Of a DNA stretch of 64,000 nucleotides, positions 2,915 through 30,664 are shown piece by piece; within the stretch, counting starts at the first letter, position 1; each line of letters opens with the position of its first letter. The notes beneath the pieces were generated by a model. It searched no databases and had not been told where the DNA came from. It worked only from the letters and a program-made list of their open reading frames with translations. The DNA comes from Squalus acanthias. Lineage: Eukaryota. The stretch is taken from NCBI GenBank assembly GCA_030390025.1, contig CM059431.1, positions 125,614,001 through 125,678,000 on the forward strand. Direction: 5' to 3'. Both the position numbers and the translations under genes were made by a program.

Positions 2915-4591
2915 TGTAAGGGATTCTGACCCTGCGTGTCTCGCAGCCTGTGAGATTCACGCGGCTCTGTGCAGCCTGTTTGTCAGTGCGGGTCTAGGCC
3001 TTGTTGCCTGTTCTGGTCTCCAGCCAGTCTGGGAACACTAGACACACCTGTGAGTGGTTCGAATCACTCTCCCTTACGGTTCTAGACACTGGACTTAGAT
3101 GCGAGAGCAGTAATGGAGATGAAACTCATGTAGACTCGGTTTGAATGGTACGAAATGGAAAATCTTTATTGCATGATACTTAAGATTATGAAATACATGT
3201 CATAAGCACAGATTAATGACAGTACAATCTTACAAACAGTTATATAGTCGATCTTAGGGAAACGAGGAACGAACGGCACAAAGTAAATAGGGGCACACAT
3301 TACAAATATCCTTAATCCTTAAACCCTCCCCTATCAATATCTATCCTAAACTAGATTCGTAGGATTTCGAGACTCATGCTCACCACTCGTGATAACTCGG
3401 AGAAATTCCGAATAGCTGATCGGATGTTTTTCACCGCAGCACCCACGTGTCGGTCAGGAGATCTCCTGGTCCCACTTGTTTACTTGCTTCTGCTGCTCCG
3501 GCTAGCAGGCTGGACCGTCTGCTGTGATGAAGACCTGTGTTGGTTGGTTTAACAGGTACTCTTCGAGCACAGTTGTCGATATCGTCGATACGATATGTTT
3601 CGTTACAAGTTCGAAGAAGTCTTCCTGGCGAGGAAAACTTGGATAATCGACCTACAGGCGCGGTCGGGATTTACTGACCGTGGCGATGGATATGGTCTTC
3701 CTCTCTTCTCATCTCATCTCATCTCATCTCATCTCATCTCGGGCCTTCGGTTCCGCTGCCAGTTACCAACATAGGTCTTCGTTACGCGACACGAGGTAGA
3801 TCCGAACGGATCAGAAAGTTCAACAGTCTTTTCAGAAGAGGCAACAGACAAGCAGGAGCGAGCCCAACTACGAGTACACAGGAGCAGCCACGAGGTTTAC
3901 GAATCGATCGGATAAGAGCACAGGAGCAGCCACGATGATAAGAGCAGCAAGAGCAAGAGAGAGAATGGACGGTTTGGAGCCTGCAATTATAGTGCAAAAT
4001 CTTCCGTTTCCCGCCCAACTATAATGTCCATTCTTTTGTTTAGGGTTTGGCGCTCAAATGTCTTGTATGGGTGATCTCCGTTCTTAATGGGTTTCGGGGC
4101 TACTCGTAAATGTCTGAGTACCTGTTAATATTTCTCCCATTGTTAAATCGGTCGGTGTTCTCCCTGGAGGGGTTTGGGGCTTCCAAGTGTCCTGTATAAC
4201 TACCTGCTAACGGCTCTCTCATCGTAGAGTCGTTGGGATTTTACATATTAATGTCTTTTGGATGGGCCCTTGATTACTCGGTACAATGGCTTTCCTTTGT
4301 ACCTGGGAGACCGATTTCAGTATCTATGTGTATACTGCAAACCCATAATGTCTCGTGTATTATCTTCACTGTGCTGAATCTTAATCGATCTTGCACAAAT
4401 GTTTATTGGAACGCCATCTTGTCTGCCTGTTGAAAAGTCTAGAATGTTCTGTCACGAGGTGCGGCGGCCATTTTACAGGCTGCTTGTGTCCACTTTAAAC
4501 CTGCCAGCATTCTACTGAAATAAAAGTTGTTTGAACGAAACTCTGTGTTTTCTCCTTATTAATAAAATCGCGATATATTGCGAATTCTACA
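2915..4591 (-). repeat. 3' LTR of the outer provirus (1677 bp)
   Basis: Minus strand reads TGTAGAATTC...CCCTTACA; direct repeat of 26912-28588; preceded by the polypurine tract. Confidence 0.97.
3165..3170 (-). terminator. Putative polyadenylation signal AATAAA in the LTR
   Basis: AATAAAGATTT context is present in all four LTRs and in the diverged solo LTR (58298-58303). Confidence 0.65.
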
Positions 4592-10700: not shown

Positions 10701-10911
10701 CCAGGAAAAACTCCTTCCCCCCATCTATGGCCCCTAAGGCTGGCGCGGTCTGCAGATCCCTTTTTAACTTCTCGAAGGCTGCTTGGCAGCCCTCGTCCCA
10801 AAGCCACTCCACCCCCTTATGGAGGAGTCGGAGGAGCGGCGCTGCTGTGGCCGCATAATCTTCGATAAAATCCCTGCAGTAACCGGTCAGTCCCAAGAAG
10901 GACCTCACACC
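7710..10911 (-). pseudogene. pol: 3' half of the outer pol (RT thumb, tether, RNase H, integrase, C-terminal extension with a 1-nt indel near 8355)
   Basis: RSFLGLTGYCR, YVDGSS...AQQAEL...SDS...GNRQAD, HHCC, IDYIG/SDQG/VERMN, GPY; interrupted at 10911 by the inner provirus. Confidence 0.95.
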
Positions 10912-12640
10912 TGTAAGGGATTCCTGACCCTGCGTGTCTCGCAGCCTGTGAGATTCACGCGGCTCTGTGCAGCCTGTATGTCAGTGCGGGTCTAGGCCTG
11001 GTTGCCTGTTCTGGTCTCCAGCCAGTCTGGGAACACTAGACACACCTGTGAGTGGTTCGAATCACTCTCCCTTACGGTTCTAGACACTGGACTTAGATGC
11101 GAGAGCAGTAATGGAGATAAAACTCATGTAGACTTGGTTTGAATGGTACGAAATGGAAAATCTTTATTGCATGATACTTAAAATTATGAAATACATGTCA
11201 TAAGCACAGATTAATGACAGTACAATCTTACAAACAGTTATATAGTCGATCTTAGGGAAACGAGGAACGAACGGCACAAAGTAAATAGGGGCACACATTA
11301 CAAATATCCTTAACCCTTAAACCCTCCCCTATCAATATCTATCCTAAACTAGCTTCGTAGGATCTCGAGACTCATGCTCACCACTCGTGATAACTCGGAG
11401 AAATTCCGAATAGCTGATCGGATGTTTTTCACCGCAGCACCCACGTGTCGGTCAGGAGATCTCCTGGTCCCACTTGTTTACTTGCTTCTGCTGCTCCGGC
11501 TAGTAGGCTGGACCGTCTGCTGTGATGAAGATCTCTGTTGGTTGGTTTCACGTACCAGTCAACACTTAAGAGAATAATCTCTCGGTGTCCGTCATGAGGA
11601 TCTGCCCTGATGGGTTTCACAGATCAGTCAATATCACAAAGGAGAATCTTCCGGGGTCCGTTCTTTAAAGTTCAAAGAAGTCTTCCTGGCAAGGAGAAAC
11701 TTGGCTGATCGACCTACAGGCGCGGTCGGGATTTACTGACCGTGGCGATGGATATGGTCTTCCTCTCTTCTCCTCTCATCTCATCTCATCTCATCTCATC
11801 TCGGGCCTTTGGTTCCGCTGCCAGTTACCAACATAGGTCTTCGTTACGCGACACGAGGTAGATCCGAACGGATCAGAAAGTTCAACAGTCTTTTCAGAAG
11901 AGGCAACGGGCAAGCAGAAGCCCAACTACGAGTACACAGGAGCAGCCACGAGGTTACGAATCGACCGGATAAAACACAGGAGCAAGCGAGCGAATGCAAG
12001 AGCAAGAAAGAGAATGGACGGTTTGGAGCCTGCAATTATAGTGCAAAAATCTTCCGTTTCCCGCCCAACTATAATGTCCATTCTTTTTTTTAGGGTTTGG
12101 CGCCCAAATGTCTTGTATGGGTGATCTCCGTTCTTAATGGGTTTCGGGGCTACTCATAAATGTCTGAGTGCCTGTTAATATTTCTCCCATTGTTAAATCG
12201 GTCGGTGTTCTCCCTGGAGGGGTTTGGGGCTTCCAAGTGTCCTGTATAACTACCTACTAACGGCTCTCTCATCGTAGAGTCGTTGGGATTTACATATTAA
12301 TGTCTTTTGGATGGGCCCTTGATTACTCGGTACAATGACTTTCCTTTGTACCTGGGAGACCGATTCCAGTATCTATGTTTATACTGCAAACCCATAATGT
12401 CTCGTGTATTATCTTCACTGTGCTGAATCGTAATCGATCTTGCACAAATGTTTATTGGAACGCCATCTTGTCTGCCTGTTGAAAAGTCTAGAATGTTCTG
12501 TCACGAGGTGCGGCGGCCATTTTACAGGCTGCTTGTGTCCAATTTAAACCTGCCAGCATTCTGCTGAAATAAAAGCTGTTTGAACGAAACTTTGTGTTCT
12601 CTCCTCATTAATCAAATCGCGATATATTGCGAATTCTACA
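10912..12640 (-). repeat. 3' LTR of the inner provirus (1729 bp)
   Basis: TG...CA ends; direct repeat of 22067-23795 with at least two substitutions seen by eye. Confidence 0.97.
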
Positions 12641-13087
12641 GTCCCTCCTGTTGATGCGAATAACTCCGCTTATCGCATCAAAAATCATAGTGGTGAGCAA
12701 TATTATCTCGATTTCTCTCCGAATCCAGTAAATTAATCCCATAATTTTTAACTTAGCTAGGGTCTCTGTGTCGTCCTTATTTCCCAAGAAAATCACATTT
12801 TATATCACCGTAGGCATTATTTGCCCTTAAACTTACACCACTTGTTTTCCTTCCCGGCGTAACCAGGCCGATACCTCTCGTATCACCTGTATATTTGTCT
12901 TTTATTCAGGGAAAGGAAAAAAAAAAACAAAACCCAAAACCAAACAATCAACACCATCACCAAAATAATCAAAACCCCAACTCTTAAAACATGTCGAGTT
13001 CCCAACGTATTTACAATCTCTGAAAATCTTATATGAGTACAAACTTCCGCGGCGCACGCGGCGAGCGGGAGTGACGCCATTTTCCGA

Positions 13088-15435
13088 TTACACGGTGCTC
13101 TCATCGTGCACGCGCACGTAACGTTCTCGCCACTCTCCCGTGTTTTCATGCTTGGTGAGGCGTTTGTCTCTTTTACAATGTATGACCAATAGGTACACTA
13201 CAATAAACACTTGACATACGACTAAAATGTGGGAGGCTATTCTGATCCATGAAGGCACTTCAATATTAGTGAACAGATTCCACCACGGTGGAACTACTAT
13301 GTCCAAAATGTCTGTTCCTATTTCGACAGTTTTCTGCTCTAATGTATAAAAATGTTTCTGTGATACCGCGACGGCTTTCAGAAGTTTGGTTAAGTGTTCA
13401 GGGAGAGGGGGAATGAGGTATCCAAAATGCGCGACAAATCGCTGCAAGTCGGTGAAATTCTCTTTTACTGTGAGATGAACAGTGGATGGTTCAGGGATTG
13501 GGATAATTCGCTGTTGTGCTACTTGAACTTCAGCCCTGGGTTTAAAACAGAAACTGCTGTCACTCACCGGACACCGGCTACGGTTTCCATGCTGGTAGTG
13601 TTGCGCTGCAGTGGTAACACAATATGTTCCACCCCCGATGTATGCTACCTGCGGAGGCACATGATCTTGTGCCATTGCCTCCATGGTGCAATTCATGGAC
13701 TTGGCGCCAGCCGTTCTGAACCCGCACTGTGGTGTTAAAAAGGCATTCAAGTGCTGGGGGCACAGTATTATGTGTGCTCCCCTGCCACGACAACCAGAGA
13801 GATCCGTACCTGTCATCGTTTGCTCCCAGCGGATGACGTAAGGTGGAACCGCTGCATAACGAATGTGGGCTCCCCCCTGAATGACACCAATGTTCTCTAC
13901 CCGATATACCGGGGCGGGCTTTGCTGTGTCGCCCAAAACCGGCATGCGTAATACTATTCCCATAATAGTATGGTTTGATCGTCCGCAGTCCACGGGGACT
14001 GGGTAAGCTTCTGAAGCTAGCCTGAGCTGGCACGGACTTAATGCGTTCTGAAAAGGGTGGAGCGCCCGTAGGTGTTTGTTACTTATCCAGGACGGAACCA
14101 AACCTTGTTTTAAATCCTCCAAATTACTGCGGCCCTCGCCCAGTAACCACGCCCCGTAAAGCACGCACACCTCGTTCTGCGCAGCTTGATCGGATGCATT
14201 CCGATCTTCCCTGATCAGGGCATTTACCGTACGCGCATGTTTCTCCAGCTCTGCTATAATTTCCTTTAAATGGAGAGTCATGGCTTGGTCCTCGTGTAGA
14301 CCTGACCCTACCACTTTATTCTCATCTGTTAGAATGTCTTTTAACTGTGTTTTTAAACCATTAATCTGGGTCTGCAGCTCCACACTGTCTAGAGCGTTGA
14401 CCACAGATGTCCCTGTGTTAAAAGCAGTGAACGCATCGTTCACCAAACCCCTTCTTTGCCTCCCTACTTGATCCAAAACTTCCTGCGGTGCGGTGTACAA
14501 ACTTGTCTTATCAATTTCTGCAAAATCAAACTCGTAAAATTGTCTGAACATCTTGGTCAACAGGACCTGATACAACTGTTCCGTCTTTTTGGGGCACCAC
14601 TCTGGTAACCGTACCTCAGTGAGATTTAAAATCACCGAGGCCACCGCGTAATGTACCCCCTGAAAGAGTATCTGGTCTGTGGGGACCAGTACCAAACCAT
14701 TCCCGGGTCCCTTACTAGTTTTAGGGCACCCTTCTTCCTCAGCTAGAACCACCGGAATCGTGGGCGGGGCTTTGCGTGGGCGCGTAATGAGCTCAGTGGC
14801 ATTTACTGGGATCGGGGAGAATGGGGCTCCGCACCCCCTGGTGCTCGCATCCCACCTCATCCCCTGTCCGTTATCCTGCCATTGATTAATAAAAAATATG
14901 GAGATGCCTTTGGGGCAAACGTACTTTGACCCCCACATACATACATAAATTCCCTCATCCGGTTCCCACCATTTGTCCCAACAGACTTTCACTTGTCCGT
15001 CTGTCCCCGTAATTGTCCGATGGGTATTATTACCCAGTCGTTCCCACTCGACCGAAGAGTTTCTCATAGTTTTGCTCAGCTTTCGCAGCCACCACCATCG
15101 GCTCAATGGGACCTTCCCACTACAAGTCAAACAAATCCGTTTGCCGACGGTGACGCTGATCCTGGGTGCGATGATCCTTTGGGGCACAGTAAAGAAGTCT
15201 CTTGGTAGGCAAACCCCGATGTGCTGGAATACTCCATTGAGTTCGTTCCCAGCCATCCTGGCCACCTTCCCTTGTGGAAATAGGTGCTGGTCCCCTCTGC
15301 CTTCCGTCTTCCGGTCCCATCCACCGCGATGGGGGCCGTGTCCCCGGAACATCCAAACACCACGACATCCTTGGTGTGGCCTCGATAGGCCAATCCACAT
15401 CCGATTGCCACGAGCAATACTAGAATTCGTTCCAT
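13088..15435 (-). pseudogene. env: env of the inner provirus; 4-nt deletion near 15177 disconnects the signal peptide
   Basis: ATG of MERILVLL at 15435; ATCCT----TTGGGG versus ATCCTCACTTTGGGG in the outer copy; the rest is open to the stop at 13088. Confidence 0.9.
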
Positions 15436-15726
15436 CCTTCCTTGGTTCCTGTGATCAGATAGAATGAGGTAGCCAGCCTCGCAAGAGTCTCTGGCTTTTG
15501 TGAAGGGTGAGCGGGTCCCCTGACCTCGCCTCACGTAAACTTCAACGTTTGCTGAATAAACTTCCTCTAAACCTAACCTTAAAAACTCCCATCATTTATC
15601 GTTTTCTGTTAAAAACACTACAAACTTAGCCTTATTAAAACTATAAACTTATTCTTAACCTTAAACTATAAACTTAAAACTTAACCTTGTTACTATACAG
15701 TGCCGCCCGTTCTCAGGGCGGCCCCT

Positions 15727-18700
15727 TTAAATTCTGAGAAGGCTGCTGCGAGCTCTTCCCGACGGTGGGAGGGCGCTGACCCTTCCCTCTGATCTGCCGC
15801 AGCCTGTTGCTGCGCTGACCCTTCCCTCTGATCTGCCGCAGCCTGTTACTGCTGCGATGTGGCCGGTCTGTACCCGGGTTATCTTAACCTGAAGTCTACG
15901 CCTTGGGGCAGTCTGGGGACATGACCACATCCTCCTGGGCTGGGGTTCTCTACTTGACCTACGGGGAGTTGCTATGGGCGGGGGTTCCGTGACGGACGGA
16001 CCGGGTTCCGAGACCTCCAACGGGATGACCTGGGGTTCCATCACAGTCGCCGGCTCCGCCTCCGCTGACTCCGCCTCCCTAACCTCGGGGCTTGCAGTTC
16101 GTGGCTCCGCCCTGCTCGGCCCAGCAAGCGGCCCTTCACTCGTGATCTCTGCCTCCCCTGAGGACTGGACGTTCAAAGCGGGCGGCCACATCTCTGGGAG
16201 CCACATCGGTACTCTCTGTGCTCCTATAGCGGCTGGCCCTGCCTCCTCTAGCTCCTCCCTCCTGTCCTCGGGACCTGCAGCTTGTGTGTCCACCCTGTGT
16301 GGATCTCTACCTATAGGCCCCATTCCCCCCAGACCGTTCCTCAGGAACCACCCGTCATCATCACTATGCTCATCTGCACTATCCTCATCTGACCAGGGTA
16401 CCCTGGGTTCTTCCTCATCTAACCCCCAACTCCAGAAAAACGCTGCATGATCGTCCGGGATGTCCCTTCCCCTGATGCAAGCTGCTATGCCTGCCTGTGT
16501 GCCTTGTGGTCCTACCTGGGGCTGTGCTTTCCCATTGGCGGGATTTACCCCTGTAGTTTTCCCCTGCGCACCCGGCTGGTACAGCTTGCATTGGTTTATG
16601 TGGAACCACTTAGTGCGCCGAGGTACTTTTACGGCGTAAACCATGGGACTCGCCTTGTCTACAATGTTGTAGGGTCCCATATACAGTGGTTCCAGACTCC
16701 CTACTCTGGCGTAGTTTCTGACCATGACCTGGTCTCCTACTTCCCACTCCCGCGTTTTGCGGGGTTCCAGCAATAAGCGATTGCCCTGATGCTGCCTTCC
16801 CATGTTCCCAGCCGCCTGCTCATAAACTTGCTTCAGGCGCTCCAAGAGAGTCTGGGCGAACTTGTCCCTGCTTATCTCTTGGAGCTGACCCTCAGTGAGC
16901 ACCGGGGCTAGCACATGGGTGGGGGTTCGCATGAGCCTGCCGGTCATTACCTCGTGCGGGGAGTACCCCGTACTTATTGACTGACTGGCCCGGACCCCCA
17001 TGAGGACTAAAGGCAGAACTTCCGCCCATTTTTGGGGCGAGTTCCTAGTCTCTTTCCTCAATTTCTCCTTCAGGGTCCGGTTCATACGTTCAACAATCCC
17101 GGATGACTGGGGATTGTGTGCTACGTGCCACTTCCCTTCAATGCCCAAAAGCATGAGGGTGTTCTGCATCACCTGGCCGGTGAAATGACTCCCTTGGTCT
17201 GACTCCACAAAACGGGGGAGTCCCCACCGCGAGAACACTTCCCGGACCAAGATTTTTGCTGTACCCAGTGCCGTAGCTGTTCGACAAGGGAAGGCTTCCA
17301 CCCACTTGGAAAACACATCCACCAGGACGAGGCAGTACTTATAACCTCCCTGGGTGGTGGGCAGGGGTCCTATATAGTCGATCTGTATCGACTGCCATGG
17401 TCCCTCTACCCTTCTTACGTGTCCCATGGGCACCTTCCTTTTCTGGGGGTCTGGGTTGTTTGCAGCGCACACAAGACAGTTTGCACAGAACTCGCGGACT
17501 TGTTCCCTGAGCCCTGGCCACCATCCCGCTTGCTCTACCCGTTGCCAGGTAACCTCGGGCCCGGGGTGCCCTGCCCCTGGTCCCTCGTGAGCCAACTGGA
17601 GGAATTCCCTCCTGTGCTGCTGCGGCACAACCCACTGCTCCTCGCGGAACAGCATGCCTTCCTTAACGGAGAGGGTTGCCGTACTGTACGGACCTTCTAC
17701 CTGCCTCCCCTCAGCAATCGTTTTTAGGACTGCTTTTAGGGCGGGATCCTGGGCTTGGACGGTCTTGAGGTCTAGGGGCAATGCTACCCTGGTGTTCCCG
17801 GTATTCCCGTCCCCGCCTCGGACCGCTGCTATGGGTCCGGTCCTGTAGGGGTTCCAGAAAGTGCCGTCGCGGGCACCCTCCCTGGCTAGCGCATCCGCCT
17901 GCCGGTTGCCCTCCCCACGGGGCTCTGTGGAGGAGTGAGCTTTCACCTTATGGATGAAAATCTCTCCTTCCTCCCCTACTGCTGCTGCTAAGATCTTTTC
18001 CAGCAAGGGCTTCACCGTTAAAGGTCGCCCGTCCGCGGAGGTGTATCCGCGGCGGGACCAAATGGCCAGGTATTCCGTACACGAATTGCAGGTGAACATA
18101 CTGTCCGAGCAAATCGTGTATGGGGTTGGGAAAATGTCTGGGTGGGTCACAACGTACACCACGGCAGACAGCTCAGCCTGCTGCGCGCTCATGGTGCTAG
18201 GGAGCTTGATCGCCAGGGCAAGGTCTGCCGCAGGGTCATAAACTCCACACCCTGTGAGTCGCTCGCCAGCAGACACTGTGCTAGACCCATCAACATAAAT
18301 CTCGCGCCCAGTGGGATGTATCCCGGCCCGTAAACCTATGTTGACGTCCCACACCCCTTCCACCGAACACCGGTGGGCTGTACCGGGGTATACCAAATTG
18401 GCCGCAAGCCTGGGCTCGCAAAGACCTTTTACTCTAAGATCCAACTGGGAGAGAAGAAGGGTCCAACGCGCAATGCGTGCGCTGCTTACGGTCCCGTCTT
18501 TAATCCTCCCATCCAGAAGCATCTTAGTTGGTGTGTGATGTGTGAGGAGAGTGATGGGAGAGAGCCCTGTGAAGATCGCTGATCTTTTCACAGCCCAATG
18601 CGTGGCTAAAAGGTGCCTTTCGCAATTGGAGAAACTTCTCTCCACATCCGTTAATACCCTGGATGAATAGACAACCGGCCTCAGCTTGCCGTGACGCTCT

Positions 18701-20250
18701 TGGAGCAGCACGGCGCTTAAGCTGTCTCCGCTGGCAGCTACCTCCAGGAAAAACTCCTTCCCCCCATCTATGGCCCCTAAGGCTGGCGCGGTCTGCAGAT
18801 CCCTTTTTAACTTCTCGAAGGCTGCTTGGCAGCCCTCGTCCCAAAGCCACTCCACCCCCTTATGGAGGAGTCGGAGGAGCGGCGCCGCTGTGGCCGCATA
18901 ATCTTCGATAAAATCCCTGCAGTAACCGGTCAGTCCCAAGAAGGACCTCACACCCCTTACGTTGTTGGGAATCGGTAATTCTTGCACCGACTCCCTCCTT
19001 GCTTTGTCTATGGCTCTTTCCCCAGCGCGTATGGTCAGTCCCAGGAATTTTACTTCCCGCTGACCGATACGTGCTTTCTTAGGATTTATTTTAAAACCCT
19101 TTCTCGCTAACAGTTCCAATAACTCGTCCAGTAGTGGTCCGTGCTCCTCCCTTGAGTCCGTAAATAGGAGCAAATCATCCACATACTGTACTATCTGATT
19201 GGGCTGACTAAACTCCCTTAAACTTCCTGCCATACACTGATGAAAAATACTGGGGCTATTGTGGAAACCCTGTGGCAGACAGTTCCACGTGTACTGTTGC
19301 CCTTTGAAAGTAAAGGCAAACTTGTACTGGTCCTCTCGCCGCAGCGGGATGGACCAAAAACCGTTCGAGATATCCAGCACCGTGAACGTGGTCGCGGACG
19401 CTGGGATGCTCCCTATTAGGTCAGCAACTGCTGCTACTGTGGGCGCGCAGGCGGGAATGTTACTGTTAAGGACTCTGTAGTCCACCGTGGCTCTCCACGA
19501 ATTATCCGGCTTCCTAACCGGCCATAATGGGGAGTTCACGTGTGTGGCTATCGGCCTTAACACGCCCTGCTGCACCAAGGAAGACATTGCTGTCTCCATA
19601 TCGGGTTCTGCTTCTTTGGGGAAGTTATACTGCTTTTGGGGTCGGGTCATGGGGTCCCCATCTACGCTGACCTCAAACCCGACCACTCTCCCACAATCGT
19701 GCTTGTGGGTTGCAAACGCGTGCATATTATCTGACACGTACGTTTGCATGTCCGTTGGGACATCTGCGACCATAAGCCTGAGGTCGTAGCCTCCGGATGG
19801 CTGTACGGTACACAGGACCCCTGTTTCTTCCTCCCCCGGAATCACTATTACCTCGCCTTTTTCACCTTTAGCCCCCCAGAGACAGTGATTTCTGAGGTCC
19901 ACGAGGATCCCGTGTCCCGCTAGGAGATCGGACCCGAGAATACCTCTTCCACCCCCCTTTTGCCATGCCATCAGTATACACTTCCACTTAAGGCGAAGTG
20001 TTCCTAAACGAATGGATAGCGGAAGGGAAAACGTGCCAGCCTGTTCTTTTCCTGTGAACCCTGCCAACGTGAATGGGACCTTGGTAGATAGCGGCGAGTC
20101 AAAAGGGTCATCTGTATGGATTATGGTGCAAGAAGCTCCCGTGTCCAACAAATAACTGCCCTTCTGTTTCTCTACCTCCATCTCCACCACAGGTCGCCTC
20201 CACGCATCATAGCTAAGCGGACACAGGTAGACGGGCTGTGCTGGTTCTAG
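15727..20250 (-). CDS. pol: Pol polyprotein (PR-RT-tether-RNase H-IN plus a long acidic/Pro-rich tail), in frame with gag after one UGA
   Basis: LLDTGAS/ILGSD protease; LDISNGFW, LPQGFHNSP, YVDD RT; degenerate first RNase H (LEVAASG); second RNase H (YVDGSS); HHCC-DDE-GPY integrase; no internal stops. Confidence 0.96.
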   Translation of the reverse strand, partial: LEPAQPVYLCPLSYDAWRRPVVEMEVEKQKGSYLLDTGASCTIIHTDDPFDSPLSTKVPFTLAGFTGKEQAGTFSLPLSIRLGTLRLKWKCILMAWQKGGGRGILGSDLLAGHGILVDLRNHCLWGAKGEKGEVIVIPGEEETGVLCTVQPSGGYDLRLMVADVPTDMQTYVSDNMHAFATHKHDCGRVVGFEVSVDGDPMTRPQKQYNFPKEAEPDMETAMSSLVQQGVLRPIATHVNSPLWPVRKPDNSWRATVDYRVLNSNIPACAPTVAAVADLIGSIPASATTFTVLDISNGFWSIPLRREDQYKFAFTFKGQQYTWNCLPQGFHNSPSIFHQCMAGSLREFSQPNQIVQYVDDLLLFTDSREEHGPLLDELLELLARKGFKINPKKARIGQREVKFLGLTIRAGERAIDKARRESVQELPIPNNVRGVRSFLGLTGYCRDFIEDYAATAAPLLRLLHKGVEWLWDEGCQAAFEKLKRDLQTAPALGAIDGGKEFFLEVAASGDSLSAVLLQERHGKLRPVVYSSRVLTDVERSFSNCERHLLATHWAVKRSAIFTGLSPITLLTHHTPTKMLLDGRIKDGTVSSARIARWTLLLSQLDLRVKGLCEPRLAANLVYPGTAHRCSVEGVWDVNIGLRAGIHPTGREIYVDGSSTVSAGERLTGCGVYDPAADLALAIKLPSTMSAQQAELSAVVYVVTHPDIFPTPYTICSDSMFTCNSCTEYLAIWSRRGYTSADGRPLTVKPLLEKILAAAVGEEGEIFIHKVKAHSSTEPRGEGNRQADALAREGARDGTFWNPYRTGPIAAVRGGDGNTGNTRVALPLDLKTVQAQDPALKAVLKTIAEGRQVEGPYSTATLSVKEGMLFREEQWVVPQQHRREFLQLAHEGPGAGHPGPEVTWQRVEQAGWWPGLREQVREFCANCLVCAANNPDPQKRKVPMGHVRRVEGPWQSIQIDYIGPLPTTQGGYKYCLVLVDVFSKWVEAFPCRTATALGTAKILVREVFSRWGLPRFVESDQGSHFTGQVMQNTLMLLGIEGKWHVAHNPQSSGIVERMNRTLKEKLRKETRNSPQKWAEVLPLVLMGVRASQSISTGYSPHEVMTGRLMRTPTHVLAPVLTEGQLQEISRDKFAQTLLERLKQVYEQAAGNMGRQHQGNRLLLEPRKTREWEVGDQVMVRNYARVGSLEPLYMGPYNIVDKASPMVYAVKVPRRTKWFHINQCKLYQPGAQGKTTGVNPANGKAQPQVGPQGTQAGIAACIRGRDIPDDHAAFFWSWGLDEEEPRVPWSDEDSADEHSDDDGWFLRNGLGGMGPIGRDPHRVDTQAAGPEDRREELEEAGPAAIGAQRVPMWLPEMWPPALNVQSSGEAEITSEGPLAGPSRAEPRTASPEVREAESAEAEPATVMEPQVIPLEVSEPGPSVTEPPPIATPRRSSREPQPRRMWSCPQTAPRRRLQVKITRVQTGHIAAVTGCGRSEGRVSAATGCGRSEGRVSALPPSGRARSSLLRI

Positions 20251-22062
20251 TCATGGGGCACTATTAGACGGTCCTGCGGCACCTACGGGGCCGGTTGCGA
20301 CCGCCACCTGTCCACGCGCATTCAAGACTAGCTTGCGCATGGCTCCTAACACTGCTTCGAGGTCGTCGGGAGGGGTGGGTGCCTTGGCTTCCTTAGCCGG
20401 GACAGGCGCCTGGGCTCGGACCGCGGGATTTTTATCCTTGGAATCCTTCCAAGGGTTCCTGCAATGCTTGCGCCAGTGCCCTGTCTTCCCACACCCGTAA
20501 CAAGCATTACCTGCCTGTGGGGCGCGATTACCCTCCTGATGCCACTCTCTTTGATACGGGGCTGCGGGTCGTACCTCATGTATTCTTCCCTTAAAGGGAC
20601 GTGTCGTCATACCCCTTATATTACGATAACCTAACGTGAGTCGATTCAAGACCGACTCTTCCGTAAGGTTGAGGTCATTGGGATCAAACCATGCTTTTGC
20701 CTGCTCTCTAACGGCTGGTAAACTGTTGGCTATTATGCACCTAAGCCAATGAGTTAAAGCGGCGCCTTCCACATCTTCGCGCTCGGGCGCACCTAGACAG
20801 CTGCGCTCATATACTGGCCACAGCCTGTCGGCAAAAACCTTCGGGGGTTCTCCCTCCATCTGCACTGTCTGTCCCACTCTAGCAAACGGACCTCCGTCGT
20901 TCGCCCCCAACACTTCTAGGACCTCATTCTTTAATTCCTCATAACTCTTGTTTCCCCTCTTGCTCTCGCCTGAGAGACACTGAAGGACCGAGCTGTCTAA
21001 TGAGAACAGCAGCATTTTTGCTGTCTCCCCATCATCGCAGCCGTTAATGGCTGCGGCTTGCTCAACTTCTCTGAAATGTACGGAAGGGTCGTCTATCTCG
21101 GTCAGCTTCCGTACGTGATTTATCATAGCTCTCAGCTGATGTGAACTGTGAGGCAACACCAGCTGTCCGAGGAGATCCCCCGGTTCTTCCCCACCGTTTC
21201 TGCTTGGGCCCCTTTTAATACCCGTTACTGGATACAGCGATCCCTTTTCTACTTCCTTTTCAATGGGCTCTTTTGTTTCTTCCATTGCTTCCTCCCTAAC
21301 CCAGGTTTCTGAATAGCTGGGTGGCGCGGAGGGCGCAGTGGCTACTACTTCTTCTGCTTTACTTGGTGGGGATTTTCTAAATCTCTCATTTACTAGCGGC
21401 TGGTGCGCCGACGGATTGATAAGGCACACCATGCCGTTCGCATTGTTCACGGCCTTTTTGAGGTTCTCTATCTCCCTTTGGCAGGCGCTATGGTCGGCTC
21501 CCTGAAACTTATCCTCAAGGGCCAACTTATATGCCGACCTAACCCCCATTAAGCTCTCTTCTTGAGTTCTTATCTGGGCAGCTTGGCGGTTACATCTTTC
21601 CTTTAACCTGCTCTCATTCAATTTTGCCTCAGTGACCTGGCACTCGAGATAATCTATCCTTGTTTTAAGGTGACTGGAGACTTCCTGGCTTTCCTGGTGT
21701 AACTCATTTAAATTCTTAATGAGCACCTCCCCTCCAGAAACCTTCTCCTCCATTTCTCCCTCTAAATGACTGATTCGAGCTACTAGCGCTGTAATGGTCT
21801 GGTTTGAAATCTGAACCTGCCTTTTGTAGCACATAAGCCAGACTGCTTTCTCAAGTGTCTTTCTATGTTCTTTACTATCTGTCCACCTTTCAGCTGCCTC
21901 TAGTGGGCTCTTATCCGCTAACAATTCACTTATCCATTTCTTAGTTAGATTAACCTTTCCAAACACATAATCCGCTATCTTTTCCTGCATAACATTTCGT
22001 ACAGTCATTCCAAAATCTAACACACTACCCTCTCGCTGCCAGTGTCCTGCCGCGGTCGCCAT
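20251..22062 (-). CDS. gag: Gag polyprotein, 603 aa (inner provirus)
   Basis: Coiled-coil-like N-half, PSAPPSY late motif, capsid-like helical region, single CCHC knuckle CYGCGKTGHWRKHC; first ATG at 22062. Confidence 0.93.
   Translation of the reverse strand: MATAAGHWQREGSVLDFGMTVRNVMQEKIADYVFGKVNLTKKWISELLADKSPLEAAERWTDSKEHRKTLEKAVWLMCYKRQVQISNQTITALVARISHLEGEMEEKVSGGEVLIKNLNELHQESQEVSSHLKTRIDYLECQVTEAKLNESRLKERCNRQAAQIRTQEESLMGVRSAYKLALEDKFQGADHSACQREIENLKKAVNNANGMVCLINPSAHQPLVNERFRKSPPSKAEEVVATAPSAPPSYSETWVREEAMEETKEPIEKEVEKGSLYPVTGIKRGPSRNGGEEPGDLLGQLVLPHSSHQLRAMINHVRKLTEIDDPSVHFREVEQAAAINGCDDGETAKMLLFSLDSSVLQCLSGESKRGNKSYEELKNEVLEVLGANDGGPFARVGQTVQMEGEPPKVFADRLWPVYERSCLGAPEREDVEGAALTHWLRCIIANSLPAVREQAKAWFDPNDLNLTEESVLNRLTLGYRNIRGMTTRPFKGRIHEVRPAAPYQREWHQEGNRAPQAGNACYGCGKTGHWRKHCRNPWKDSKDKNPAVRAQAPVPAKEAKAPTPPDDLEAVLGAMRKLVLNARGQVAVATGPVGAAGPSNSAP
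22044..22061 (-). promoter_or_regulatory. Primer-binding site of the inner provirus, tRNA-Ser-like
   Basis: TGGCGACCGCGGCAGGAC, 5 nt after the LTR-terminal CA; TGGCG...GCAGGA resembles the complement of vertebrate tRNA-Ser 3' ends (recalled, not searched). Confidence 0.7.
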
Positions 22063-22066
22063 TTTC

Positions 22067-23795
22067 TGTAAGGGATTCCTGACCCTGCGTGTCTCGCAGC
22101 CTGTGAGATTCACGCGGCTCTGTGCAGCCTGTATGTCAGTGCGGGTCTAGGCCTGGTTGCCTGTTCTGGTCTCCAGCCAGTCTGGGAACACTAGACACAC
22201 CTGTGAGTGGTTCGAATCACTCTCCCTTACGGTTCTAGACACTGGACTTAGATGCGAGAGCAGTAATGGAGATAAAACTCATGTAGACTTGGTTTGAATG
22301 GTACGAAATGGAAAATCTTTATTGCATGATACTTAAAATTATGAAATACATGTCATAAGCACAGATTAATGACAGTACAATCTTACAAACAGTTATATAG
22401 TCGATCTTAGGGAAACGAGGAACGAACGGCACAAAGTAAATAGGGGCACACATTACAAATATCCTTAACCCTTAAACCCTCCCCTATCAATATCTATCCT
22501 AAACTAGCTTCGTAGGATCTCGAGACTCATGCTCACCACTCGTGATAACTCGGAGAAATTCCGAATAGCTGATCGGATGTTTTTCACCGCAGCACCCACG
22601 TGTCGGTCAGGAGATCTCCTGGTCCCACTTGTTTACTTGCTTCTGCTGCTCTGGCTAGTAGGCTGGACCGTCTGCTGTGATGAAGATCTCTGTTGGTTGG
22701 TTTCACGTACCAGTCAACACTTAAGAGAATAATCTCTCGGTGTCCGTCATGAGGATCTGCCCTGATGGGTTTCACAGATCAGTCAATATCACAAAGGAGA
22801 ATCTTCCGGGGTCCGTTCTTTAAAGTTCAAAGAAGTCTTCCTGGCAAGGAGAAACTTGGCTGATCGACCTACAGGCGCGGTCGGGATTTACTGACCGTGG
22901 CGATGGATATGGTCTTCCTCTCTTCTCCTCTCATCTCATCTCATCTCATCTCATCTCGGGCCTTTGGTTCCGCTGCCAGTTACCAACATAGGTCTTCGTT
23001 ACGCGACACGAGGTAGATCCGAACGGATCAGAAAGTTCAACAGTCTTTTCAGAAGAGGCAACGGGCAAGCAGAAGCCCAACTACGAGTACACAGGAGCAG
23101 CCACGAGGTTACGAATCGACCGGATAAAACACAGGAGCAAGCGAGCGAATGCAAGAGCAAGAAAGAGAATGGACGGTTTGGAGCCTGCAATTATAGTGCA
23201 AAAATCTTCCGTTTCCCGCCCAACTATAATGTCCATTCTTTTTTTTAGGGTTTGGCGCCCAAATGTCTTGTATGGGTGATCTCCGTTCTTAATGGGTTTC
23301 GGGGCTACTCATAAATGTCTGAGTGCCTGTTAATATTTCTCCCATTGTTAAATCGGTCGGTGTTCTCCCTGGAGGGGTTTGGGGCTTCCAAGTGTCCTGT
23401 ATAACTACCTGCTAACGGCTCTCTCATCGTAGAGTCGTTGGGATTTACATATTAATGTCTTTTGGATGGGCCCTTGATTACTCGGTACAATGACTTTCCT
23501 TTGTACCTGGGAGACCGATTCCAGTATCTATGTTTATACTGCAAACCCATAATGTCTCGTGTATTATCTTCACTGTGCTGAATCGTAATCGATCTTGCAC
23601 AAATGTTTATTGGAACGCCATCTTGTCTGCCTGTTGAAAAGTCTAGAATGTTCTGTCACGAGGTGCGGCGGCCATTTTACAGGCTGCTTGTGTCCAATTT
23701 AAACCTGCCAGCATTCTGCTGAAATAAAAGCTGTTTGAACGAAACTTTGTGTTCTCTCCTCATTAATCAAATCGCGATATATTGCGAATTCTACA
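22067..23795 (-). repeat. 5' LTR of the inner provirus (1729 bp)
   Basis: Direct repeat of 10912-12640, followed by PBS and gag. Confidence 0.97.
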
Positions 23796-25095
23796 CACCC
23801 CTTACGTTGTTGGGAATCGGTAATTCTTGCACCGACTCCCTCCTTGCTTTGTCTATGGCTCTTTCCCCAGCGCGTATGGTCAGTCCCAGGAATTTTACTT
23901 CCCGCTGACCGATACGTGCTTTCTTAGGGTTTATTTTAAAACCCTTTCTCGCTAACAGCTCCAATAACTCGTCCAGTAGTGGTCCGTGCTCCTCCCTTGA
24001 GTCCGTAAATAGGAGCAAATCATCCACATACTGTACTATCTGATTGGGCTGACTAAACTCCTTTAAACTTCCTGCCATACACTGATGAAAAATACTGGGG
24101 CTATTGTGGAAACCCTGTGGCAGACAGTTCCATGTGTACTGTTGTCCTTTGAAAGTAAAGGCAAACTTGTACTGGTCCTCTCGCCGCAGCGGGATGGACC
24201 AAAAACCGTTCGAGATATCCAGCACCGTGAACGTGGTCGCGGACGCTGGGATGCTCCCTATTAGGTCAGCAACTGCTGCTACTGTGGGCGCGCAGGCGGG
24301 AATGTTACTGTTAAGGACTCTGTAGTCCACCGTGGCCCTCCACGAATTATCCGGCTTCCTAACCGGCCATAATGGGGAGTTCACGTGTGTGGCTATTGGC
24401 CTCAACACGCCCTGCTGCACCAGGGAGGACATTGCTGTCTCCATATCGGGTTCTGCTTCTTTGGGGAAGTTATACTGCTTTTGGGGTCGGGTCATGGGGT
24501 CCCCATCTACGCTGACCTCAAACCCGACCACTCTCCCACAATCGTGCTTGTGGGTTGCAAACGCGTGCATATTATCTGACACGTACGTTTGCATGTCCGT
24601 TGGGACATCTGCGACCATAAGCCTGAGGTCGTAGCCTCCGGATGGCTGTACGGTACACAGGACCCCTGTTTCTTCCTCCCCCGGAATCACTACTACCTCG
24701 CCTTTTTCACCTTTAGCCCCCCAGAGACAGTGATTTCTGAGGTCCACGAGGATCCCGTGTCCCGCTAGGAGATCGGACCCGAGAATACCTCTTCCACCCC
24801 CCTTTTGCCATGCCATCAGTATACACTTCCACTTAAGGCGAAGTGTTCCTAAACGAATGGATAGCGGAAGGGAAAACGTGCCAGCCTGTTCTTTTCCTGT
24901 GAACCCTGCTAACGTGAATGGGACCTTGGTAGATAGCGGCGAGTCAAAAGGGTTATCTGTATGGATTATGGTGCAAGAAGCTCCCGTGTCCAACAAATAA
25001 CTACCCTTCTGTTTCTCTACCTCCATCTCCACCACAGGTCGCCTCCACGCATCATAGCTAAGCGGACACAGGTAGACGGGCTGCGCTGGTTCTAG
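23796..25095 (-). pseudogene. pol: 5' half of the outer pol (protease and RT palm), cut by the nested insertion
   Basis: LLDTGAS, YVDD; ends at NNVRGV and continues as RSFLG at 10908. Confidence 0.95.
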
Positions 25096-26907
25096 TCATG
25101 GGGTACTATTAGACGGTCCTGCGGCACCTACGGGGCCGGTTGCGACCGCCACCTGTCCACGCGCATTCAAGACCAGCTTGCGCATGGCTCCTAACACTGC
25201 TTCGAGGTCGTCGGGAGGGGTGGGTGCCTTGGCTTCCTTAGCCGGGACAGGCGCCTGGGCTCGGACCGCGGGATTTTTATCCTTGGAATCCTTCCAAGGG
25301 TTCCTGCAATGCTTGCGCCAGTGCCCTGTCTTCCCACACCCGTAACAAGCATTACTTGCCTGTGGGGCGCGATTACCCTCCTGATGCCACTCTCTTTGAT
25401 ATGGGGCTGCGGGTCGTACCTCATGTACTCTTCCCTTAAGGGGACGTGTTGCCATACCCCTTATATTGCGATAACCTAACGTGAGTCGATTCAAGACCGA
25501 CTCTTCCGTAATGTTGGGGTCATTGGGATCAAACCATGCTTTTGCCTGCTCTCTGACGGCTGGTAAACTGTTGGCTATTATGCACCTAAGCCAATGAGTT
25601 AAAGCTAAGCCTTCCACATCTTCGCGCTCGGGCGCACCTAGACAGCTGCGCTCATATACTGGCCACAGCCTGTCGGCAAAAACCTTCGGGGGTTCTCCCT
25701 CCATCTGCACTGTCTGTCCCACTCTAGCAAACGGACCTTCGTCGTTCGCCCCCAACACTTCCAGGACCTCATTCTTTAATTCCTCATAACTCTTGGTTCC
25801 CCTCTTGCTCTCGCCTGAGAGACACTGAAGGACCGAGCTGTCTAATGAGAACAGCAGCATTTTTGCTGTTTCCCCATCATCGCAGCCGTTAATGGCTGCG
25901 GCTTGCTCAACTTCTCTGAAATGTACGGAAGGGTCGTCTGCCTCGGTCAGCTTCCGTACGTGATTTATCATAGCTCTCAGCTGATGTGAACTGTGAGGCA
26001 ACACCAGCTGTCCGAGGAGATCCCCCGGTTCTTCCCCACCGTTTCTGCTTGGGCCCCTTTTAATACCCGTTACTGGATACAACGATCCCTTTCCTACTTC
26101 TTTTTCAATGGGCTCTTTTGTTTCTTCCATTGCTTCCTCCCTAACCCAGGTTTCTGAATAGCTGGGTGGCGCGGAGGGCGCAGTGGCTACTACTTCTTCT
26201 GCTTTACTTGGTGGGGATTTTCTAAATCTCTCATTTACTAGCGGCTGGTGCGCCGACGGATTGATAAGGCACACCATGCCGTTCGCATTGTTCACGGCCT
26301 TTTTGAGGTGCTCTATCTCCCTTTGGCAGGCGCTATGATCGGCTCCCTGAAACTTATCCTCAAGGGCCAACTTATATGCCGCCCTAACCCCCGTCAAGCT
26401 CTCTTCTTGAGTTCTTATCTGGGCAGCTTGGCGGTTACATCTTTCCTTTAACCTGCTCTCATTCAATTTTGCCTCAGTGACCTGGCACTCGAGATAATCT
26501 ATCCTTGTTTTAAGGTGACTGGAGACTTCCTGGCTTTCTTGGTGTAACTCATTTAAATTCTTAATGAGCACCTCCCCTCCAGAAACCTTCTCCTCCATCT
26601 CTCCCTCTAAATGACTGATTCGAGCTACTAGCGCTGTAATGGTCTGGTTGGAAATCTGAACCTGCCTTTTGTAACACATAAGCCAGACTGCTTTCTCAAG
26701 TGTCCTTTTATGTTCTTTACTATCTGTCCACCTTTCAGCTGCCTCTAGTGGGCTCTTATCCGCTAACAATTCACTTATCCATTTCTTAGTTAGATTAACC
26801 TTTCCAAACACATAATCTGCTATCTTTTCCTGCATAACATTTCGTACAGTCATTCCAAAATCTAACACACTACCCTCTCGCTGCCAGTGTCCTGCCGCGG
26901 TCGCCAT
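25096..26907 (-). CDS. gag: Gag polyprotein, 603 aa (outer provirus), intact
   Basis: Near-identical to the inner Gag; CCHC knuckle; ends in TGA-CTAG. Confidence 0.93.
   Translation of the reverse strand: MATAAGHWQREGSVLDFGMTVRNVMQEKIADYVFGKVNLTKKWISELLADKSPLEAAERWTDSKEHKRTLEKAVWLMCYKRQVQISNQTITALVARISHLEGEMEEKVSGGEVLIKNLNELHQESQEVSSHLKTRIDYLECQVTEAKLNESRLKERCNRQAAQIRTQEESLTGVRAAYKLALEDKFQGADHSACQREIEHLKKAVNNANGMVCLINPSAHQPLVNERFRKSPPSKAEEVVATAPSAPPSYSETWVREEAMEETKEPIEKEVGKGSLYPVTGIKRGPSRNGGEEPGDLLGQLVLPHSSHQLRAMINHVRKLTEADDPSVHFREVEQAAAINGCDDGETAKMLLFSLDSSVLQCLSGESKRGTKSYEELKNEVLEVLGANDEGPFARVGQTVQMEGEPPKVFADRLWPVYERSCLGAPEREDVEGLALTHWLRCIIANSLPAVREQAKAWFDPNDPNITEESVLNRLTLGYRNIRGMATRPLKGRVHEVRPAAPYQREWHQEGNRAPQASNACYGCGKTGHWRKHCRNPWKDSKDKNPAVRAQAPVPAKEAKAPTPPDDLEAVLGAMRKLVLNARGQVAVATGPVGAAGPSNSTP
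26889..26906 (-). promoter_or_regulatory. Primer-binding site of the outer provirus
   Basis: TGGCGACCGCGGCAGGAC after the LTR-terminal CA and a GAAAA spacer. Confidence 0.7.
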
Positions 26908-26911
26908 TTTC

Positions 26912-28588
26912 TGTAAGGGATTCTGACCCTGCGTGTCTCGCAGCCTGTGAGATTCACGCGGCTCTGTGCAGCCTGTTTGTCAGTGCGGGTCTAGGCCTTG
27001 TTGCCTGTTCTGGTCTCCAGCCAGTCTGGGAACACTAGACACACCTGTGAGTGGTTCGAATCACTCTCCCTTACGGTTCTAGACACTGGACTTAGATGCG
27101 AGAGCAGTAATGGAGATGAAACTCATGTAGACTCGGTTTGAATGGTACGAAATGGAAAATCTTTATTGCATGATACTTAAGATTATGAAATACATGTCAT
27201 AAGCACAGATTAATGACAGTACAATCTTACAAACAGTTATATAGTCGATCTTAGGGAAACGAGGAACGAACGGCACAAAGTAAATAGGGGCACACATTAC
27301 AAATATCCTTAATCCTTAAACCCTCCCCTATCAATATCTATCCTAAACTAGATTCGTAGGATTTCGAGACTCATGCTCACCACTCGTGATAACTCGGAGA
27401 AATTCCGAATAGCTGATCGGATGTTTTTCACCGCAGCACCCACGTGTCGGTCAGGAGATCTCCTGGTCCCACTTGTTTACTTGCTTCTGCTGCTCCGGCT
27501 AGCAGGCTGGACCGTCTGCTGTGATGAAGACCTGTGTTGGTTGGTTTAACAGGTACTCTTCGAGCACAGTTGTCGATATCGTCGATACGATATGTTTCGT
27601 TACAAGTTCGAAGAAGTCTTCCTGGCGAGGAAAACTTGGATAATCGACCTACAGGCGCGGTCGGGATTTACTGACCGTGGCGATGGATATGGTCTTCCTC
27701 TCTTCTCATCTCATCTCATCTCATCTCATCTCATCTCGGGCCTTCGGTTCCGCTGCCAGTTACCAACATAGGTCTTCGTTACGCGACACGAGGTAGATCC
27801 GAACGGATCAGAAAGTTCAACAGTCTTTTCAGAAGAGGCAACAGACAAGCAGGAGCGAGCCCAACTACGAGTACACAGGAGCAGCCACGAGGTTTACGAA
27901 TCGATCGGATAAGAGCACAGGAGCAGCCACGATGATAAGAGCAGCAAGAGCAAGAGAGAGAATGGACGGTTTGGAGCCTGCAATTATAGTGCAAAATCTT
28001 CCGTTTCCCGCCCAACTATAATGTCCATTCTTTTGTTTAGGGTTTGGCGCTCAAATGTCTTGTATGGGTGATCTCCGTTCTTAATGGGTTTCGGGGCTAC
28101 TCGTAAATGTCTGAGTACCTGTTAATATTTCTCCCATTGTTAAATCGGTCGGTGTTCTCCCTGGAGGGGTTTGGGGCTTCCAAGTGTCCTGTATAACTAC
28201 CTGCTAACGGCTCTCTCATCGTAGAGTCGTTGGGATTTTACATATTAATGTCTTTTGGATGGGCCCTTGATTACTCGGTACAATGGCTTTCCTTTGTACC
28301 TGGGAGACCGATTTCAGTATCTATGTGTATACTGCAAACCCATAATGTCTCGTGTATTATCTTCACTGTGCTGAATCTTAATCGATCTTGCACAAATGTT
28401 TATTGGAACGCCATCTTGTCTGCCTGTTGAAAAGTCTAGAATGTTCTGTCACGAGGTGCGGCGGCCATTTTACAGGCTGCTTGTGTCCACTTTAAACCTG
28501 CCAGCATTCTACTGAAATAAAAGTTGTTTGAACGAAACTCTGTGTTTTCTCCTTATTAATAAAATCGCGATATATTGCGAATTCTACA
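26912..28588 (-). repeat. 5' LTR of the outer provirus (1677 bp)
   Basis: Same length as 2915-4591; no differences noticed in the parts compared by eye. Confidence 0.97.
27983..27988 (-). promoter_or_regulatory. Putative TATA box of the 5' LTR
   Basis: GCACTATAA is shared with the solo LTR (~58867-58875); an initiator-like CATTCT lies ~25 nt downstream. Confidence 0.5.
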
Positions 28589-29848
28589 CACCCGATCCAA
28601 CCCCTTCACAATCTTATATGTTTCAATAAGATCGCCTCTCATTCTTCTGAACTCCAATGAGTAGAGTCCCAATCTACCCAACCTCTCCTCATATGACCAC
28701 CCCCTCATCCCCGGGATTAACCGAGTGAACCTTTTTTGCACTGCCTCGAGAGCAAGGATGTCTTTCCTTAAGTAAGGACACCAAAACTGTATGCAGTATT
28801 CCAGGTGCGGTCTCACCAATACCTTGTACAACTGAAGCAATACCTCCCTATTTTTATATTCTATCCCCCTAGCAATGAAAGCCAACATTCCATTTGCCTT
28901 CTTAATCACTTGCTGCACCTGCATACTAACCTTTTGAGTTTCGTGCACCAGGACCCCCAGATCCCTTTGCACTTCAGTACTCTCCAGTTTCTTGCCATTA
29001 AGATAATAAATTGCTCTAGGATTTTTCCTGCCAAAGTGCATCACCTCACACTTTCCAGTGTTGTATTCCATCTGCCAAATCTCTGCCCACTTACTTAGCC
29101 TGTCTATGTCCCCTTGCAGGTTTTTTATGTCCTCCTCACTCACTACTTTCCCTCCCATCTTTGTATCATCTGCAAATTTTGATATGTTACACTTGGTCCC
29201 TTCCTCCAAATCGTTAATATAGATTGTGAAGAGTTGGGGACCCAGCACTGACCCCTGTGGAACACCACTAGTTACTGATTGCCAGTCTGAGAATGAACCA
29301 TTTATCCCAACTCTTTGCTTTCTGTTAGATAGCCAATCCTCTATCCATGCCAGAATATTACCCCCAATCCCGTGATTTTTTACCTTAAGCAATAATCTTT
29401 TGTGTGGCACCTTGTCAAATGCCTTTTGGAAGTCTAAATACACTACGTCCACTGGTTCCCCTTTATCCACTCTATATGTTACTTCCTCAAAGAACTCCAG
29501 CAAATTTGTCAAACATGACTTCCCCTTCGTAAAACCATGCTGACTTTGTCCTATTAAATTATGATTATCCAAATGTCCTGTTACTGTTTCCTTAATAATG
29601 GACTCCAAAATTTTACCTACCACAGATGTTAGGCTAACCGGTCTATAGTTACCAGCCTTCTGTCTACTGCCCTTTTTAAATAAGGGTGTTACATTAGCAG
29701 TTTTCCAGTCTGCCGGGACCTTAGCGGAATCCAGGGAGTTTTGAAAAATTATTACCAATGCATCTACAATCCCTACCGCCACTTCCTTCAAGACTCTAGG
29801 ATGTAAGCCATCAGGTCCAGGTGATTTATCCGCCTTGAGTCCCATTAT
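28589..29848 (-). mobile_element. 5'-truncated CR1 (HER1-like) LINE body, RT domain, open frame
   Basis: [46 protein letters not shown]. Confidence 0.97.
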
Positions 29849-30664
29849 GTTTAATTTTAAATGAGAACTCGAGCTTACCATTCTAAGATTAAAAATGTTA
29901 ATAATAAATCAATAACAGTTTTCATGCTGAGTCTATAATAGGCAATTATGTATATCATGAAAGTGGCCTTGAAACTACTTAATTTCAGATGATATAACCT
30001 GAGGCTAATTGAAGTCATTGTTACATCCTAAGTCACCTTCTCTAGAAACACAAACAAAGACAAATGTTTTTTTTTTTTAAATATACAGGCTTGGATTTTC
30101 TGCCAAACTTCTGTTCATTTTGGGGTGGATTAGAGTGGTAAACAGAGTAAAATGGGTTCTTAGTAGCTACCGCCTTACATCTGCCAAACAAAATCTGCAC
30201 CTGAATTATCATCTCAAAAAAAGCACTTGTCCCTGTTAAGACCTGCCGGAATCCCGCTTCACCTCATAGAAATTGGGTCAGCAGAGGCGTGTTGAATCCC
30301 TCCAATCCATCTTCCTCAACTCCAGCCCCAAACCCAGCACAAATCATTATGTGCTAGGTATCCTTGAGGCAGGTAACACATTAAGGAGGCTATTTTTGTG
30401 TGGTTTTACTGAAGGTTGGTGTTATTTTAGAGTAGAATTTGGACAGCATCCGATAGCAAGTAGGATTCTGGTGGCTCATATTGACGGTGTGCCAGAACGA
30501 TCGTTATCGTTAAATTGAGTATTGTTGCACCTGTTTTACTCCTGTAAAATTGGTGAAATAACGTTGAATTTATGCCTCTTTCCTTGCATGTCAATCTCTT
30601 TAGTATTCTGAATGTTCATTCAAGACTTTTGCTGCAAATTTCATTTAGCTCTGCTCTAATGCTC

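Follow-up and report, generated by a model that had tools for sequence, protein, structure and literature searches.

Probable type II stop-codon readthrough at the UGA-CUAG gag-pol junction of a shark endogenous retrovirus

The present analysis concerns a 64,000-nucleotide window of the Squalus acanthias genome (the whole stretch of DNA that was analysed; GCA_030390025.1, contig CM059431.1, positions 125,614,001 to 125,678,000) and the gag-pol junction of an endogenous retrovirus (ERV) found in it. Four long terminal repeats (LTRs) of ~1.7 kb mark two nested proviruses, the inner one (10912-23795) being inserted in pol of the outer one (2915-28588; Table 1). With two mismatches over 1729 sites between the inner LTRs and identical outer LTRs, both proviruses are, judged by LTR divergence, very young. 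In each of them gag terminates with CCA-TGA-CTAG and pol follows 3' of the stop in the same frame, an arrangement by which Pol is probably made through type II (UGA-CUAG) stop-codon readthrough. The TGACTAG motif, reported by the initial annotation for both gag ends yet without a strand, is indeed present at both sites and lies on the minus strand (20253-20247 in the inner and 25098-25092 in the outer provirus).

Table 1. Coordinates of the proviral features and of the elements around the gag-pol junction (positions within the window).
Feature	Position	Strand	Remarks
gag, inner provirus	20254..22062	-	603 aa; coiled-coil region, capsid-like region, one CCHC knuckle; ATG 4 nt past 5' LTR
gag stop UGA, inner provirus	20251..20253	-	proposed readthrough codon
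CUAG 3' context	20247..20250	-	type II / OPRL1-like leaky motif; motif function from PMC4132726
Extended stem-loop	20035..20241	-	prediction; +10 to +216 after stop, 9 unpaired bases before
Retropepsin fold	19891..20223	-	predicted structure; codons 10-120 after stop
pol frame, inner provirus	15727..20250	-	1507 codons; protease, reverse transcriptase, tether, RNase H, integrase, long C-terminal tail
env, inner provirus	13088..15435	-	apparently F-like; splice-acceptor candidate 15448 and own ATG; frameshift near 15176
5' LTR, inner provirus	22067..23795	-	1729 nt
3' LTR, inner provirus	10912..12640	-	
UGA-CUAG junction, outer provirus	25092..25098	-	
gag, outer provirus	25099..26907	-	603 codons; 97% identical in protein
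pol, outer provirus, first 434 codons	23796..25095	-	interrupted by nested insertion; remainder ~7713-10911
5' LTR, outer provirus	26912..28588	-	1677 nt
3' LTR, outer provirus	2915..4591	-	

In the inner provirus, the 603 codons of gag (from the ATG at 22062), the TGA and 1507 open codons add up to 2111 aa, which bears out the length previously claimed for Gag-Pol as well as the claim that pol runs through the stop into the protease, the quoted peptide included. This frame is intact in the inner copy only, since the nested insertion cuts the outer pol after 434 codons. Besides, the two proviruses had been counted as two cases; the motif is present in both, yet over 3758 nt their junction regions share 98.3% identity and hence amount to one observation. 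Within the window, 16 of 2170 TGA triplets (both strands) precede CTA and four precede CTAG, two of these four being the junctions themselves, while CTA accounts for 19 of the 2109 gag and pol codons. No slippery heptamer occurs in 20150-20400, where both other frames are closed; a -1 frameshift, which the shared frame does not call for in any case, was therefore ruled out as a route to Pol.

The end of Gag appears to be held in place across relatives. A skate Gag of 50% identity has the same starting Met and the same last residue, and two further Gags (51% and 44% identity) end within one residue of the position seen here. With a query that ran across the stop, written as X, none of the 26 matching proteins covered both sides. 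Pol codons 1-432 show 12 synonymous and three non-synonymous changes between the inner and outer copies, a pattern indicative of purifying selection on pol, and gag differs by 15 synonymous and 17 non-synonymous changes. Because distant Gags end alike, no match spans the stop and the changes in pol are mostly synonymous, the sequence comparisons mark the gag stop as programmed rather than accidental. No variant of the junction was present among the 40 of 1281 variant rows listed for contigs of three organisms, which covered all 30 bins.

Where the protease begins restricts how Pol can be reached. In an AlphaFold model of the first 137 pol codons, built with a 13-row alignment (pLDDT 86), residues 1-99 of HIV-1 protease align to codons 10-120 (Z 10.8, rmsd 2.6). 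The catalytic Asp is codon 36 (20145) and the first in-frame Met codon 24 (20181), so that 14 residues of the predicted fold precede this Met, and relatives conserve the preceding segment in the alignment. No in-frame ATG lies ahead of the N-terminal strand of the protease. As the fold begins 14 codons before the first Met, translation must cross codons 10-23, which leaves either readthrough or a splice whose acceptor lies no more than ~30 nt from the stop. The modelled start of the protease thus argues against an mRNA for Pol alone, and the layout departs from that of Spumaretrovirinae, in which a spliced pol mRNA carries its own ATG before the protease. On the annotation side, database models of 'NYNRIN-like' Pol proteins take as their start a Met that lies within the protease, whose N-terminal part they therefore lack.

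The initial annotation had proposed folding the region downstream of the stop, and doing so yielded a z-score of -3.7 for the first 161 nt and of -5.9 for 220 nt, the latter forming one long stem of -92 kcal/mol (z -5.8 in the outer copy). Against a synonymous-codon null, the 220-nt junction fold ranked first among 28 equal windows. Of four differences between the copies, two turn G-U into A-U pairs, one is unpaired in both copies and one gains a pair. An alternative local hairpin was predicted at about +7 to +67 after the stop, and a crude stem search for pseudoknots, run without a control, returned four possible pairings, all with one 6-bp stem at +10. Whether the predicted long stem-loop has a role in readthrough we regard as evenly balanced.

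As to the identity of the element, its reverse transcriptase (RT) matched MLV and foamy RT with E-values of 1e-52 to 1e-60, as compared with 1e-41 for Ty3, which places it in Retroviridae. The best Pol matches were one relative at 82% and 'NYNRIN-like' proteins of amphibians and coelacanth at 44-45%; Gag and Env found matches in skate, sawshark and catshark, which suggests a cartilaginous fish as the probable host. In a 57-row tree containing no SnRV, loki or foamy reference, the element stood beside the amphibian and coelacanth 'NYNRIN-like' Pol proteins and outside the gamma/epsilon-like rows, at an open node. A hand count over 138 RT columns of the lokiretrovirus supplement alignment gave ~70 identities to SnRV, 48 to Loki-Ofa and 50 to MuLV. 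Env had no sequence match in Pfam or PDB; its ESM Atlas feature matches of 0.93-0.95 to Gypsy env, Baculo_F and Fusion_gly clusters are a lead only. Our working label is an SnRV-like ERV with an F-like Env, whose RT does not appear lokiretroviral. An assignment to the lokiretroviruses was dropped, as the RT lacks loki motifs and is ~35% identical to Loki-Ofa versus 51% to SnRV (compared by hand, no tree having included loki rows). No relative of the element was found among viral contigs. Metagenome contigs gave 53 loci, all distant, whose readable junctions were gammaretrovirus-type UAG-GG and none of which was a family member; one gammaretrovirus-type locus (L008:800-1200) has a sense codon at the usual position of the gag stop.

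By the hand count of RT identities, the nearest known systems are SnRV and SnRV-like ERVs, including lineage I of the elephant shark CmiERV, in which an in-frame gag stop likewise precedes the protease. SnRV itself differs in that its stop reads UAG-GGC, according to a recent review (PMC13517186). The old, SnRV-like CmiERV-I shares a UGA-C junction (TGA CAT G, read by eye) with the protease Asp 44 codons on, but carries an Env of gamma type in which an immunosuppressive-domain motif can be read (by eye), whereas the Env of the present element appears to be F-like. An F-like Env on an SnRV-like Pol could reflect either an env swap or a separate lineage. Further traits that set the element apart from SnRV-like ERVs are its LTRs of 1.7 kb and the position of the gag ATG within the primer-binding site. 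Lokiretroviruses, as described in the main text of Wang and Han (2021, PMC7947760), resemble it in their dual RNase H and a coiled-coil before the capsid and, apparently, in an F-like Env; they differ in RT signature motifs, which are absent here, and in that 10 of their 24 consensuses have fused gag-pol. In all seven readable, stop-bearing consensuses (supplement, by eye), UGA-CUA ends gag in frame with pol, as TGACTAG in Ofa, Cne, Pyo and Sau and as TGACTAA in Bsp, Dcl and Lro; being interrelated, these are not seven independent events. The remaining seven consensuses were excluded as unreadable or because the junction was not examined, namely Ape (which begins inside pol), Tfu (X-L-S in the protein at the homologous spot, its DNA unread), Aro, Bpe, Lca, Rca and Lch, the last with a TGACTAG near the start of pol, out of frame.

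Class III frog ERVs provide a further parallel. XtERV-S has gag and pol in frame across a TGA, for which suppression was proposed in the original report (PMC8278194), and in a defective bullfrog class III ERV gag ends TGA CTA G in frame, with TGA CTA A in a second duplicated stretch (by eye). XtERV-S and XlERV-S differ from the present element in reading TGA CAG G and, as class III frog ERVs, in their serine primer-binding site, gamma-type transmembrane protein and dUTPase. Gamma- and epsilonretroviruses (MoMLV, WDSV, SSSV, ZFERV, RMEV) have the same plan, a single frame in which a leaky stop separates nucleocapsid from protease, but MoMLV uses UAG-GG plus an H-type pseudoknot, and the stop-to-Asp distance is 27 codons in most gammaretrovirus-type metagenome loci versus 36 here. 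The contrast with other retroviruses drawn initially stands as far as the unusual UGA-CUA(G) context is concerned; UGA as such had already been reported, for XtERV-S as well as for SSSV (UGAAGA), ZFERV (UGACGA) and RMEV (UGAAGU), none of which is UGACUA in the entries available to us (PMC13517186). The UGA-CUA(G) context itself is shared with alphaviruses (SINV, CHIKV, ONNV) and vertebrate genes (OPRL1, AQP4, MDH1). In those cases the production of nsP4 or of a C-terminal extension depends on it, as has been measured; in the element it would control Gag-Pol. The type II stem-loop of alphaviruses starts +9 to +16 from the U of the stop and spans 126-177 nt, as given in the review (PMC13517186); the one predicted here starts at +13 and spans ~207 nt.

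Taken as a readthrough signal, the junction has the features of type II, defined in the same review by the hexanucleotide UGACUA or UGACGG at the stop, with a stimulatory stem-loop 8-12 nt further 3' as a conditional element for UGACUA (PMC13517186): both copies read UGACUAG, and the downstream frame is coding without a usable start of its own. With UGA-C, it lacks the UAG-G context of the gammaretroviral type III, a type that also involves an H-type pseudoknot behind an 8-nt spacer. According to a reporter study, readthrough of four mammalian genes is driven by UGA-CUAG, whose first six bases are the invariant ones, and UGA-CUA alone gives 1.5% (PMC4132726). In the element, most ribosomes on unspliced genomic RNA would stop at UGA and release the 603-aa Gag, while a small share, probably a few percent, would decode UGA by a near-cognate tRNA since CUAG weakens termination. 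These ribosomes would make the 2111-aa Gag-Pol, from which the protease, beginning ~10 codons past the stop, would be cut out; as in alphaviruses, the predicted stem-loop that begins at +10 may make readthrough more frequent. Here, we infer that readthrough takes place, how often it does so, which residue is inserted and what part RNA structure plays, whereas the layout, stop position, protease boundary and selection on pol are observed. The in-frame UGA-CUAG, the conserved Gag end, a protease that begins before the first Met, the purifying selection seen in pol and the recurrence of UGA-CUA elsewhere together favour readthrough, so that the corresponding proposal of the initial annotation is probably right.

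On the other hand, several points speak against it. In a study of Tca2, a gag-UGA-pol junction placed in a yeast reporter did not direct readthrough (PMC2194720). The stretch from the stop to the first Met contains four AG sites, of which that at +39 has 74% upstream pyrimidines versus 68% at the env acceptor candidate. As for the fold, the 220-nt window was picked after the fold had been seen, and the junction ranks 39 of 234 windows at 80 nt and 8 of 93 at 200 nt, from which the provirus seems to be structured in many places. As to the wider clade, a coelacanth gene model with a related Pol (P0007) is fused to Gag and has Gln at the stop position, which counters universality of the stop there. 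P0007 reads Gln-Gly-Cys-Gln at this position, comparable to the TAG-GGG-TGT-CAG junction of locus L035 (L035:700-830), a hint that the wider clade may have used a gamma-type UAG context and that the lineage of the element switched its signal.

Of the other routes to Pol, we consider a spliced RNA, in which a donor in the leader or in gag is joined to an acceptor just past the stop, either foamy-style or as a stop-less Gag-Pol fusion, to be unlikely. Candidate acceptors exist at +5 (the AG of CUAG, which itself contains YAG), +11, +16 and +39, the last with the best pyrimidine tract, and complex splicing is documented for SnRV (PMC12193657). A pol mRNA of this kind would, however, find no start codon ahead of the protease, the first ATGs past +39 being out of frame, and a splice at +39 would remove codons 7-13, a stretch that relatives conserve and that belongs to the fold. 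In addition, three of the seven lokiretrovirus junctions read TGACTAAG, where the AG is shifted by one base and UGA-CUA is kept, a shift more easily reconciled with a readthrough motif than with a splice acceptor. The 15 of 20 joints listed, from contigs of uncertain RNA status, include none close to the junction.

Less probable still is a Pol whose translation begins independently at Met 24, be it through reinitiation, through internal entry or from a weak internal promoter, as partly in Tca2, whose junction has a minor promoter (PMC2194720). Met 24 does stand in a good context, but its product would be without the first 14 residues of the protease fold, and the codons preceding it are conserved. 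Free Pol would also need another way into particles. We give the least credence to the stop being a nonsense mutation in a formerly fused gag-pol that is copied passively with helper enzymes. Fused frames such as that of P0007 and those annotated in the 10 lokiretrovirus consensuses are in keeping with such an origin, yet relatives at 44-51% identity from other hosts share the Gag end, by which this explanation seems already largely refuted; purifying selection on pol and the finding that random stops precede CTAG only 2 times in 2168 in the window likewise argue against it. Readthrough of UGA-CUAG hence remains the preferred explanation for the junction.

Some further features of the locus are worth recording. 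A frameshift breaks env in both copies (for the inner one, see Table 1; near 6845 in the outer env, ~5043-7396, minus strand), and the outer pol is broken as well. The target duplications, CACC for the inner and CAC for the outer provirus (the latter judged against an empty-site paralogue), are similar words. An RT-bearing non-LTR repeat occurs as two inverted copies (28589-29908 and 60393-61989; 99-100% identical), and the outer provirus is inserted in this repeat, one copy representing the filled site and the other the empty site near 61494. In both proviruses the gag ATG lies inside the primer-binding site (22044-22062 and 26889-26907, minus strand), which presumably resembles that for tRNA-Arg, and the N-terminal MATxxG of Gag is common to P0127 and P0148. 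The 1.7-kb inner LTR (22067-23795, minus strand) has TATAA at LTR positions 258, 601 and 1399 and AATAAA at 185 and 1473, and because of these positions an R region of ~70 or ~850 nt is possible. After the SH3 domain of integrase, Pol continues into an acidic, proline-rich tail of ~270 aa (15727-16550, minus strand) with a short tandem repeat near its end. A diverged LTR-like copy at 58141-59487, 73-76% identical to the proviral LTRs and without adjoining gag, pol or env, is probably a solo LTR that stems from an older subfamily.

Readthrough at the end of gag and its UGA versions are already known; what is new is that the context is of type II, that it recurs in three deep lineages and that the predicted stem resembles the alphaviral one. 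In the part consulted of the 2026 review, the examples of UGACUA are CHIKV, SINV and PSIV, with none listed for retroviruses and 'loki' absent, and readthrough among retroviruses is described as measured only in gammaretroviruses and as unverified even in epsilonretroviruses (PMC13517186). The XtERV-S paper proposes suppression of TGA without naming the context in the text available (PMC8278194), and neither readthrough nor a stop codon is mentioned in the main text on lokiretroviruses (PMC7947760) or in the accessible portion of PMC9040795. In the literature searched, we found no report of UGA-CUA at a retroviral gag-pol junction, though subscription papers, the original SnRV paper, a survey of recoding in retrotransposons from 2003, notes in repeat databases and supplements on bioRxiv may state it. 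That UGA-CUA readthrough, overlooked so far, is widespread among retroviruses of aquatic vertebrates that branch deeply (the present SnRV-like ERV, lokiretroviruses and class III ERVs of frogs) seems fairly likely to us. The broader notion, that in addition a leaky UGA-C was possibly the ancestral Gag-Pol switch, is doubtful, as the fused gag-pol frames of the lokiretroviruses, the UAG-GGC of SnRV and the CAG/CAU variants suit repeated convergence equally well. If it were true, UAG/pseudoknot readthrough, frameshifting and foamy splicing would all derive from an ancestral leaky UGA-C. The element and the unremarked junctions in published loki and frog ERV sequences constitute short, directly testable signals, and this set of junctions bears on how early retroviruses set the proportion between Gag and Gag-Pol.

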